Shown here one piece after another: positions 416-62,965 of a stretch of DNA of 64,000 nucleotides. Every line of letters begins with the position of its first letter. The stretch's first letter is position 1. Location: contig OZ024741.1 in assembly GCA_964016885.1 (NCBI GenBank), positions 63,054,001 to 63,118,000 on the forward strand, read 5' to 3'. The notes beneath the pieces were generated by a model. That model worked only from the letters and a program-made list of their open reading frames with translations, searched no databases and was not told the DNA's origin. Origin of the DNA: Eledone cirrhosa. Its lineage: Eukaryota. A program made the translations under genes and the position numbers.

Positions 416-843
416 AATATTATTCAAAATATTAATAAATGAAACATATTCTCATAATCAGTATATATATTTTATTATACATATTTCAAAGGTACAATGG
501 TGTTTAAGTACGTTTTCATCAGACAAAATATAAGATTTGATATGCGACATACTGCTACGGTTTTGGTTATTCAATTCCAGTATTGGCAATACTGGAATTG
601 AATAATCAAAACCGTAGCGGTATGTTGCATATCAAATCCCATATTTTGTCTGATGAGAACGTACTTAAACACCATTTGTAGTACCTTTGAAATATGTATA
701 ATAAAATATATATACTGATTATGAGAATATTTTGCATTTATTAATATTTTGAATAATATTAAATACTCCAGGAAAATCCTTGTCGAGTGCTTCTAATCTA
801 TTGTATTCGTTGAATAATCAATGAACTATATTAATCTTTGGTT
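416..843 (+). mobile_element. PLE 3' terminus, family A: fold-back plus tail
   Basis: Near-perfect inverted repeat (arms ~416-585 and 587-760), one-sided tail 761-843, flanked by (TA)n, hammerhead in each arm. Confidence 0.7.
643..707 (+). ncRNA. Type I hammerhead ribozyme (minimal, PLE-type)
   Basis: ATTTTGT-CTGATGA-stem II (GTACT/AGTAC)-GAAA-TATGTA-TA-ATAAAAT; stem I ATTTTGT/ATAAAAT. Confidence 0.7.
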
Positions 844-887
844 ATATATATATATATATATATATATAAACACGCCAATATATGTAT

Positions 888-2131
888 AGTCTTTTAGTCT
901 GGAATGTTTCGGTATCTATATATATTAAACACCCTATATACATTTGTGCGCTTTGGGCTATACAGAAATGATACCTTTGCAATAGCTCGCAATGAAAGCT
1001 GACATGCATTAGATAGATTAAGAAAAGCGACCATACAAACCTTCAAAACTTTCGGCTTAAGATTAACTATAGAATCTTACGTTGCCACTGTCAACTTCGT
1101 TTATGTAACATTAGACCTACAAAATAACCAATACAAGCCCTATAGAAAACCAAACGATAGACCTTCCTACAAAAATGCCACCCACAAATAGTGTTTTAAG
1201 AATCTCGTGAAAAATATTAGCAGAAGAATCTCAAGAGAAATTTGACAAAGCGGCCCTCATCTATAATGCCCTAGAAGTAAATGAATTCAAGAATAGAATT
1301 AACTATAACACTATTCCAGCAAATGCGGAGACAACTAGATCCCAATGAATGATTCGGTTCACGCCTTCCTTCTCACTGAACGCCAAGACTAACATCGGCA
1401 GAATATTCCTTGCTCTAGTCGATAAACACTTTCCTCCTAGCCACCGTTACAGGAAAGTTAAATTTAGTTTAATATTCAATCTATTCTTACCAGTACCCAA
1501 CCCTGCCGGACGCTCATGTAGGGTCAGAAATGGGGCGTATAAGACAGAAGCCATAGTCTACGAGGTATTAATGAAATCACCAAACCCAAAGAGCACCATC
1601 AATCTCAAGTGGCACACCTCAAGTGGCACATCTCAAGTGGCACATCTCAAGTGGCACATCGGTCTTACGGAACAAAAGTTTAAAGAACGCTACAACAATT
1701 ATAGGTCGTCGTTCCGCCACAGGAGAAAAGGTTCTCCAACCATATATGGAAACTGAAAGAGGCTCTACTGATTATAACATCAGTTGGTCGATAGAAGAGA
1801 AGTGTAGAGAAGTGTAAAACAAACGCCAATGGTTCGAAGGGGTGCGGACTCTGCAAAACCGAGAGATGGCTTATATGGATAGATTCACTATATACAAACT
1901 CATGCCTCATTCGAAGACGAAATTTGTAAGCCACGCCCATATGACACTAGCTATATTCTCCACTTTTGTTCACCAAATATACAGGCACCGACCAGCCACC
2001 GAAGATAACATGATCCAGGGTAACTGGACGACCATCAAAACTCTTTCGGAGACTGGATGAAGAAACATTCAAGACTAAAAAGACTATCAGAGTATTTCGT
2101 TTCGTCTGTACTGATTAACAAGTCATATTCG
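888..2131 (+). mobile_element. Penelope-like element, 5'-truncated and disrupted (RT C-terminus plus GIY-YIG endonuclease)
   Basis: Motifs YR(N)DT, YKPYRKPN, FTPSFS..AKTNIGR.FL.LVDKHFP, IVY...HIG.TE.KFKERYNN, C.LC; short inverted copy of the 3' end at 888-910 versus ~2060-2085. Confidence 0.85.
1602..1657 (+). repeat. 4 x 14 bp tandem repeat (ATCTCAAGTGGCAC)
   Basis: Directly visible. Confidence 0.95.
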
Positions 2132-2310
2132 CGTGTGTGTGTGTGTGGATGGGATGTGTCGTGTGGATGTGCCGTGTGCATGTGTGTGCGTACACATATA
2201 TGCACACGGCATGTATGTCGGGGTGAAGGATTGCAGGTGTGTTTGTGGATGTGAAAATGTGTGTACGTGTGTGTGTTTATCGATCCATTCTGCTTATATA
2301 TATATATATA

Positions 2311-60682: not shown

Positions 60683-61131
60683 AGGAGCTCTTAACAGTCA
60701 ATGGCCATCCAAAATCACGGGGAGAGATGACCCCCTTAGCCTTTGTCAAGGCAGAATTCTAGGTGAAGGAAAACTCTGATATAACACCTGCAACCCTGAT
60801 GGTATCCAATGATGTTGACTTGTTATTCTTTTCGGTAACTATCATCTTGGTTAAGAGAGTGGGACTGGCTTTGTGCAGTGCCTTTGCTCACTATAAAAGC
60901 TTCACGGCACAGGCATTGCTTTATATCTGGAGATCTCTCTGCACTTGTCGTCACATGGTACCATGGGCCCAGCACTATGTGTCAATAATTGTCTCAAGTG
61001 TAGTGTTTGTACCAGAGTTTGCAAGTCGCTGGCTGGACTAAAAAGTAACACTCGTTCAGCGCATCGGTAGGGGTTCTCCTACATGGATATAAAGTAGTAG
61101 CCGTACTCGAAAACGAGTTGGCAGCCACCAT
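60683..61131 (+). mobile_element. RTE-derived bipartite non-autonomous element, 5'-truncated copy
   Basis: Direct repeat of 61388-61830; GAAGGAAAACTCTGA 5'UTR-like motif; terminal CSVCTRVCKSLAGLKS finger. Confidence 0.6.
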
Positions 61132-61219
61132 ATGTATGTATGTATGTATGTATGTATGTATGTATGTATGTATGTATGTATCTATGTGTATATGTATGTA
61201 TGTATGTATGTATGTATGT

Positions 61220-61830
61220 AAGTATGTATGTATGTATGTTGGTGTTACTGGTAACATGTATCCCAGTACAACCTGTCCCATGGTCGGGTCGTTGGCGACT
61301 AAACTGGTAACCCACCAAGGTTTCTTGGTGAGAAGGGTGACTTTGGACATCCTGCAGGACTAAAAAGAAAACCTGTCAAAGGGCAAAGGAGCTCTTAAGT
61401 CAATGGCCATCCAAAATCACCGGGAGAGATGACTCCTTAGCCTTTGTCAAGGCAGAATTCTAGGAGAAGGAAAACTCTAATATAACACCTGCAACCCTGA
61501 TGGTATCCAATGATGTTGACTTGTTCTTCTTTTCGGTAAATATCATCTTGGTTAAGAGAGTGGGACTGGCTTTGTGCAGTTTCTTTGCTCACTATAAAAG
61601 CTTCACGGCACAGGCATTGCTTTGTATCTGGAGATCCCTCTGCATTTGTCATCACATGGTACCATGGGCCCAGCACTATGTGTCAATAATTGTCACAAGT
61701 GTAGTGTTTGTACCAGAGTTTTCAAGTCGCTGGCTGGACTAAAAAGTCACACTTCTTCAGCGCATCGGTAGGGGTTCTCCTACATGGATATAAAGTAGTG
61801 GCCGTACTCGAAAACGAGTTGGCAGCCGCC
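61220..61830 (+). mobile_element. RTE-derived bipartite element, longer copy
   Basis: Extra ~168 nt GC-richer 5' segment plus the same body; 3' hairpin CTCG-aaaa-CGAG before the microsatellite. Confidence 0.6.
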
Positions 61831-62965
61831 ATATATATATATATATATATATATATATATATATATATATATATATATATATGCATATATTTTTTTTAAA
61901 ACCTGATTAGTTCTTTCGTTACTTTGGTATTGCATGGTTGGGTTTTGCCTACCGCAATTTTCAATTTGTCAAGCTATTTAAACGCATGTTTTTACTCTAA
62001 GAACCTACCCTATTGAGTGCTTTGCTACTCATTCCTTATTGTAGGCCGACTTTGCTTGGCCACAGCCAAAGCTTCGATTTTACTAAGCTTCCACTTGTAT
62101 ATGTATATATATTTTTTTTCTAATAAAAACTGCGATTATATTGCTGTTTGCTGAACTCCTTTTGTAGAGTTTTTTTCGAAATGTATTTGACTGTTATTTC
62201 TTGTAAACAAACATTCATTTTCATCCTGACGTCACTAGCCCTGTTTTTCCTCATGTGCGTTTTTCATAATCACGCATGATGGTGAACTAGCCAGTTTGAG
62301 AATTCCCTTTTTGGCCTATAATTCTGTGGGAGCCCTGGTTATCTGTTGAGCTCTGCTGACGATTGAAATCCAACCGTGACCATCTCCACTGAAAGTTTTC
62401 ATGAAATAGTCTTTAAGACTATACAGAGCATTTGATGTTTTTCCAAATTGAAGGATAAGTATTTTAGACTTTATTTTATCATGAGTTAAGGGTCTATTGA
62501 TTTTTCCCTGGATTTCACTAAATTCTGTTTTGAGATGAGTTTGAATTATTTTTCCTACACGTTAACTATTTTTCCCACCTTGACGACATAGTCGCATATA
62601 TGTTATGGAATACTGTTAGCTTCTCGCTAAAACAATTTCTATACCTTTCATTTATATATATATATATAGATATAGATATAAGTATGCATGTATACGTACA
62701 TACATATATGTATACAGACGTACAGTAGAATGCACATATATATATATATATATACATATATATGCATACAGGTACACATAAATATATGCACGTATCAGTT
62801 TAGCGGCGCTTATTATAACGTCGCTTTGTTCGTTTGTAAACAAACTGAACAGCCTGAATTTATGCCATACGGTGTTAAGGCAACCACGTCACCTTTTTGT
62901 TCAACACTGACACAGGAACGATGTACTAGTTTCAATCTTGTTAGCTATCATCAGCACCGTTTACC

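Follow-up and report, generated by a model that had tools for sequence, protein, structure and literature searches.

What sets the ends of a Penelope-like element (PLE)? The question is raised by a stretch of 64,000 nucleotides from Eledone cirrhosa (contig OZ024741.1, positions 63,054,001 to 63,118,000), hereafter the window, in which self-comparison revealed many fold-backs with the layout (TA)n - arm - inverted arm - tail - (TA)n. The source genome (3.0 Gb) is rich in (TA)n. The choice of start sites in PLEs and the formation of the tail and the inverted ends are an open question; the sole in vitro system located the starts, not the signal. According to the original prediction for this locus, unrelated PLE families share a motif, ACTC...GAG(T/C)(A/G)CT, in their one-sided tails. 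We describe this motif as one of two hairpins, H1 and H2. Judging from sequence comparison, these are candidate binding signals of the reverse transcriptase (RT) that probably set two internal priming sites, with starts 6-10 nt before each hairpin.

Two ends and two hairpins

Contrary to the original description, the families are related: A, B, C, F and G, together with a further family, N, are homologous PLEs of the Hydra clade. Leaders and open reading frames (ORFs) were found for all six, and their proteins are 36-55% identical. The families are thus homologous, and the motif has been kept within surrounding DNA that has diverged. Family F has a single ORF, with RT followed by a GIY-YIG endonuclease (EN) at the C-terminus and a natural frame of 585 amino acids; families C and G match the protein profile from the N-terminus to the end. 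Among the open frames listed are ones of 713 amino acids in C and about 915 in N. In family F and other EN matches the linker CxCX5C is present, CCHH is absent, and CxxC and CxH are present. DKG is replaced by DKT in family F, and by DKT or DKS in B and A. The N-terminal motif is RWK in most metagenome relatives and RWR in families F, B and A. Family F fits the Hydra clade features as defined in the accessible text of PMC8557442. Pfam gave no match on the PLE ORFs. Hammerhead core boxes were observed upstream of the short end by eye or by regular expression, with a variant core in family C, and no hammerhead is among the 150 of 206 Rfam matches listed for the window. In the family C variant an A replaces the usual second U (14220-14338 and 29000-29030 in the window; by eye). 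The elements are inserted into (TA)n, and 1,568 exact long ends of family F were found. Nine of the long ends of this family lie about 50-60 kb apart at C1:143.34-143.79 Mb, which suggests a large tandem segmental repeat.

The motif was counted in a random set of 140 evenly spaced 10-kb stretches outside the window, in the 150-nt flanks facing a (TA)n run (n=2,134). The strict pattern of the original prediction occurs in 84 of these flanks, compared to a mean of 2.85 and a maximum of 6 in 20 dinucleotide shuffles, and in 20 in the opposite orientation to (TA)n. Thus the motif is indeed more common near (TA)n than expected by chance. Combinations of halves that can pair are enriched (96 vs 6.1; 31 vs 2.9), and mismatching combinations are not (8 vs 5.1; 5 vs 2.5). 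Copies of one family are not independent, and therefore the later tests were done family by family.

Full-length elements hold two hairpins between the hammerhead-like motif and the ATG codon, one of which had been noticed originally. The order is stop codon, 3' untranslated region (UTR), hammerhead-like motif, short end E1, H1, long end E2, H2, ATG. Among 30 copies of family F chosen by the endonuclease alone (including the window copy and two pairs that look duplicated), 11 end just before the motif, 12 at the end of the tail, and the remaining seven elsewhere, four of them following small indels. Clustering of 2,801 TA flanks produced a common short end E1 and a long end E2 in many families, several of them without the motif. 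In the window and the random set together, which contain no copy of family N, families F, C, G, B and A gave 169 alignments with a TA end, and 150 of them stop 4-12 nt before H1 or H2; the end windows make up about 6% of the query, and the 4-12 nt band was picked after the counts were seen. Since the ends fall in this position, the optional tail is the H1-H2 interval, that is, the E1-E2 segment. Tail length tracks the spacing between the hairpins, 68-101 nt. The 35-80 nt from motif to (TA)n, as originally noted, is only the remainder of this spacing. The distance between arm end and motif is fixed, as had been claimed, at 6-10 nt rather than 4-8 nt. Fold-backs of the motif families are mostly one-sided (about 30, with at most four symmetric; by eye).

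Identical genomic ends, and identical loss of the hairpin from the copy, are also predicted if the RNA is cut or terminated 6-10 nt upstream of the hairpins under their direction and the RT then starts at an ordinary RNA 3' end. A related PLE starts internally on uncut RNA and does not need hammerhead cleavage (PMC11167929, in its accessible part), and the UA present at most start sites fits primer pairing, if confounded by the target. Processing of this kind is therefore unlikely, and we retain the hairpins as signals for internal starts.

The second hairpin was predicted beforehand from the metagenome layout described below, with E2 before H2 as E1 is before H1. It was then found in seven families (F, C, G, N, B, A and P, the last lacking an ORF), 6-11 nt after E2. 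Leaders located via the proteins give an E2-H2 distance of 6 nt in C, 7 nt in N, 8 nt in F and 8-11 nt in G. For B, A and P, pattern searches used the tail end and three letters only, and continuations were counted by eye. Each family has one dominant continuation: about 60 of the 100 matches listed in B (715 in all), over half of the 100 listed in A (208 in all), and about 70 of the 100 listed in P (110 in all). Each of these continuations closes into a full hairpin whose 3' strand was outside the search pattern.

Hydra-like ORFs were found at 77 metagenome loci, forming 57 families with a median protein identity of 47% among those in the tree. In 26 families the sequence before the N-terminus spans 150 nt or more; 24 of these contain a hairpin anchor and 20 contain two. 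The controls were 749 ORF windows, with one hairpin in 35 and two in five, and shuffled leaders, with one in 3.3% and two in 0.05%; they were used in place of the reverse complement (13 of 26), which is uninformative, as the motif is nearly symmetric. The layout is the same: stop codon, 3' UTR, hammerhead-like core, H1, spacer, H2, ATG. Of the true 3' ends (n=12), nine fall 0-12 nt before a hairpin, 11 further rows being contig ends or read-through and standing outside the 12. In the published Hydra consensus sequences (PMC8557442, File S7), the hairpin is present in three of six (coral, sea cucumber), partial in two and absent in one, and one consensus has it twice before the ATG (by eye).

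The metagenome hairpins lie upstream of the N-terminus, H2 at about 36-70 nt and H1 at about 88-137 nt. Such positions would suit translation operators or packaging signals, with the ends set separately by UA microhomology. Two observations make this quite improbable. Firstly, family P (L391, L393, L394), a tandemly repeated unit of about 540 nt that lacks a Hydra ORF and, by eye, a clear hammerhead core, keeps both hairpins at equal spacing from its ends, which argues for a role in mobility over one in translation. Secondly, UA-rich runs within the H1 loop of family C almost never serve as ends (3 of 46). A second role of the hairpins, in translation, may exist beside the start-setting role that we prefer for the pair. 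Family P looks like a SINE-like partner of the Hydra PLEs (SINE, short interspersed nuclear element).

Hairpin structure and the proposed start signal

The motif is a bulged hairpin composed of RCTC, an inner stem, a loop, a 2-nt bulge on the 3' side and GAGY-RCY. The original prediction captured the basal halves and missed the inner stem, the bulge and the second hairpin, which fixes the long end. With the halves anchored by sequence alone, the inner pairs form in a single register, the one with the 3' bulge. In 79 hairpins of 34 families, inner pairing is 0.90, 0.66, 0.62 and 0.55, compared to 0.73, 0.40, 0.39 and 0.37 after shuffling. The first inner pair is C-G in 46 hairpins and U-A in 24; it switched between the two at least nine times in H1 and twice in H2 on a FastTree tree of our own and metagenome rows, with no named references and with the H1 and H2 labels assigned by position. 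In a 66-row alignment 94.5% of cells pair (82.1% when shuffled), and the covariation score is 0.263 against 0.102 (0/500). The basal stem covaries within the source genome, its first pair being G-C, A-U or U-A and its third U-A or A-U. This points to a conserved cis element with true covariation, as had been suggested, most likely a hairpin read by the protein of the element. The original alternative of a GIY-YIG site fares worse, since a plain double-stranded site fails to explain the covarying inner stem.

An internal promoter is known in Penelope of D. virilis, as a downstream element (accessible text of PMC2377424). Compensatory pairing across variable loops and a fixed link to both ends are unlike promoters, and a promoter function of the motif seems hardly credible beside that of a start signal. 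Among the Rfam matches listed, 150 of 206, no family corresponds to the motif. They are essentially microsatellite-driven, and the sole one to exceed its gathering score, a plastid UTR model, falls on a TA run and a family B fold-back. A selenocysteine insertion sequence (SECIS) was set aside by eye, as there is no quartet.

In the proposed mechanism, each hairpin would anchor the RT of the element on the sense RNA, and copying would start just 5' of the hairpin. The GIY-YIG domain would nick (TA)n, and the nicked 3' end would prime internally at E1 or E2, often aided by the UA there. The start-setting hairpin would lie 3' of the start and be left uncopied, and thus E1 copies would hold no hairpin and E2 copies only H1. 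More speculatively, two protein subunits, one per hairpin, might prime both target strands from one RNA, and such twin priming would yield the fold-back (TA)n-[arm from E1]-[arm from E2]-(TA)n. A bolder version makes the hairpin pair a ruler: a dimeric RT-EN binds both hairpins on one RNA, nicks both (TA)n strands and twin-primes 6-10 nt upstream of each, so that one step produces the end of the pseudo-long terminal repeat (pLTR), the tail and the fold-back. The signal would then be portable, sending any RNA to (TA)n, and the system would be a living model of how a template is defined in the sister group of telomerase. This version we offer tentatively, as a possibility that is more doubtful than otherwise.

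Several observations weigh against hairpins of this kind acting on the sense RNA as start signals. RNAalifold by itself predicted just four basal pairs. In the inner stem, G-U and A-C occur three and two times, and thus wobble does not fix the strand. Folding of single sequences favours the sense hairpins in A, B and H1 of N, the antisense ones in C and H1 of F, and neither in G, H2 of F and H2 of N. H2 departs from the pattern, with loops of 85-90 nt in F and P and no bulge in G; the first search for H2 in family F, with loops up to 25 nt, found nothing, the actual loop being about 85 nt, and the search for H2 in family A2 found none. Among the alignments, 59 of 228 had no TA junction and were set aside, and the end-to-hairpin distances are blurred by a few nucleotides, TA being common to element and target. 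Of the 12 metagenome ends, two lie elsewhere and one has no hairpin called. Finally, a PLE of another kind, family D, has sharp ends without the hairpin.

The strand data suit the possibility that the structure acts on the other strand or as DNA, either as a hairpin of cDNA or antisense RNA or as a resolution site of a dimeric endonuclease. The 3' strand is often dyad-like (GAGYRCTC). In the literature, as far as its accessible text goes, EN-mediated resolution (PMC8557442) and an antisense template (PMC3846280) have been proposed, and tail-dependent recognition of DNA by EN is cited (PMC11167929). However, a double-stranded site cannot account for an inner stem that covaries beside a fixed bulge on one side only, the dyad is disrupted in families C, G, N and P, and a cDNA begun at E1 or E2 would exclude the very hairpin that fixes it. 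Action on the other strand or as DNA thus appears improbable, and hairpins in the sense RNA are preferred. In family F (L349 and other leaders), the loop of H2 contains an insert of about 85 nt, and in a predicted fold the 3' strand of H2 may instead pair with that of H1.

Family D, said originally to be without the motif, indeed has none. It encodes an ORF of 1,329 amino acids and has two sharp ends, with a tail within the ORF start and no hairpin. BLASTP of family D against family F gave no significant match (best E-value 1.2); by eye, D has a zinc-finger linker and a histidine-rich EN. Since family D has sharp ends without it, the hairpin signal is specific to the Hydra clade and is not a general PLE signal. 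A copy in L035 in which family D seemed to continue into the motif was dropped, since it proved to be chimeric, part D and part family P. Family D looks intact; it lies in a tandem unit of 4.4 kb and carries an insert rich in asparagine (L395, 70-4056; in the window, 34680-34866 and 32099-32866). A few identical letters come after each of its two ends, which hints at a different start signal. A frequent tandem element (L038, L043, L058, L167; classes C4/C25/C9) has two sharp ends 61 nt apart and no such hairpin.

Sites in the window and neighbouring elements

Every motif half listed in the original prediction was located, either in the given place or, for four numbers, within the named element. 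These four, 26465, 33665, 38049 and 47861, are starts of elements; the motifs start at 26588, 33777 (minus strand), 38150 and 47958. A covariance model, trained partly on the window families, found 14 sites at E-values up to 5, nine of them below 0.05 and one new; being short-loop, it misses the long-loop hairpins of family C. The features below are on the plus strand unless marked as minus.

The A-type fold-back at 410-~757 has a hammerhead-like motif in its end repeat (642..708; core boxes by eye), H1 at 765..791 (halves 765/785; E-value 0.007) and the long end E2 at 842. Another decayed Hydra-like ORF, at 880-2140, runs at its 3' end into a (GT) tract, and no hairpin was seen after it. The family B element at 2313-4253 contains a hammerhead-like motif whose stem II is long and whose stem III loop is palindromic (4067..4160; by eye), the short end at 4173, H1 at 4182..4208 (halves 4182/4202; E-value 3.6e-6) and the long end at 4253. 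The instance absent from the original list is a hairpin of a further family in a solo tail fragment at 4441-4418 (minus; E-value 0.001). In family A, the element at 9213-10970 has H1 at 10885..10908 (halves 10885/10902). Family G has a weak H1 at 11136..11157 (halves 11136/11151; E-value 2.1) and the long end at 11201; the odd 5' half ACCC at 11136 is a private mutation of this single copy. The long-loop H1 of family C occurs at 14356..14408 in the element 12592-14440, where the short-loop model missed it, and at 29086..29136 (halves 29086/~29130) in the element 28967-29170. A decayed copy of family F has H1 at 16871..16893 (minus; halves 16893/16877).

Further H1 hairpins of family B are situated at 26588..26614 (element 26466-26659), 38150..38176 (element 38050-38221) and 47958..47984 (element 47862-48031), with a B-like copy at 33751..33777 (minus). 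The family D fold-back at 34680..34866, with a 60-nt tail and no hairpin, serves as a non-Hydra control. On the minus strand, family F has a broken, 5'-truncated ORF with RT and GIY-YIG domains (49233..51046), a hammerhead-like motif (~49060-49025), H1 at 48963..48985 (halves 48985/48969) and the long end at 48926. A leader remnant of family C at 55930..56072 (minus) passes the long end into a decayed H2, which starts at 55991, and the first codons. Another family has H1 at 61994..62021 (halves 61994/62015; E-value 0.015). A possible decayed instance at 63675-63695 was left unscored by the model.

Other elements are present as well. A direct tandem pair at 60683-61882 (class C28) has a repeat of about 500 nt ending at (TATG)n or (TA)n and no motif. 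Remnants of a Pif1-type helicase at 53276-55403 (Pfam PF21530 match) probably belong to a Helitron. Remnants of long interspersed nuclear elements (LINEs) include a long RT with a zf-RVT match (19562-24051, 27767-28522), an RVT_1 fragment (34837-35526) and two copies of a C-terminal fragment (14829-16659), presumably from a LINE with a restriction-like endonuclease.

Comparison with known systems

The elements are new and their clade is known; the paired hairpin is undescribed, being of a known type of signal. No description of it was found in the accessible parts of the PLE literature covered (PMC11167929, PMC8557442, PMC4209133, PMC3846280, PMC2377424, bioRxiv 10.64898/2026.07.22.740005), which include few subscription papers; Repbase notes and supplements may bear on this. 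As described by Craig et al. (2021, PMC8557442), in the text available, the Hydra clade resembles the present families in the C-terminal GIY-YIG, the CxCX5C linker, DKT/DKS, CxxC and CxH around E and N, the (TA)n target, the fold-back, the one-sided tail and, putatively, the hammerhead. The tails are 30-40 nt there and 66-101 nt here; that text ascribes the tail to endonuclease resolution and describes no tail motif. The signal of 20-30 nt persists in different animal phyla and in families with protein identities of 36-77%, and the rule is simple: the start is the hairpin minus 6-10 nt. The hairpins probably show the RT its starting point, which would explain the puzzling one-sided tail in the Hydra branch. 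Annotators can use them to recognise the two ends of a Hydra element as well as its non-coding partners; if portable, the signal would provide a handle for RNA-templated insertion at (TA)n.

In telomerase RNA, template-flanking elements, protein-bound structures at a fixed distance, define an internal template. The RT of PLEs is the sister of TERT (PMC8557442, available text). The likeness would be one of analogy alone, with no homology of sequence or structure seen.

As a rule, the 3' stem-loop of LINEs is situated 5' of the point where RT starts and is thus carried along in each insertion. In contrast, the hairpins described here lie 3' of the start, as the ends are 5' of the hairpin, and they are paired and occupy the 5' leader of a circularly permuted unit. 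Otherwise the stringent LINE/SINE stem-loops (UnaL2, zebrafish L2; accessible text of PMC1636434 and PMC4176376) are similar, being short and conserved, containing an internal loop, tied to a particular protein lineage and shared with a non-autonomous partner, here family P. This family also resembles the non-LTR retrozymes (LTR, long terminal repeat), short tandem non-coding derivatives of PLEs (bioRxiv 10.64898/2026.07.22.740005). However, the latter are defined by the hammerhead, whereas family P keeps the hairpins; the accessible text of the preprint names no such motif.

A further parallel is PAc, a Poseidon PLE from Anolis (Frangieh et al. 2024, PMC11167929, here and below from its accessible part). 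Its RT starts at two internal sites bounding the tail, about 55-60 nt of RNA 3' of the start are required, the target is AT-rich, both target strands are cut and extended, and a dimer is predicted. The starts of PAc lie inside an AC-rich stem-loop within the ORF, and no cross-family signal was defined; the present motif is not visible in the letters of Fig. S1B of that paper. The present signal consists of two hairpins in tandem within a leader that is non-coding. We infer that the present data agree with the scheme of PMC11167929 and supply, for the Hydra clade, a candidate for the signal.

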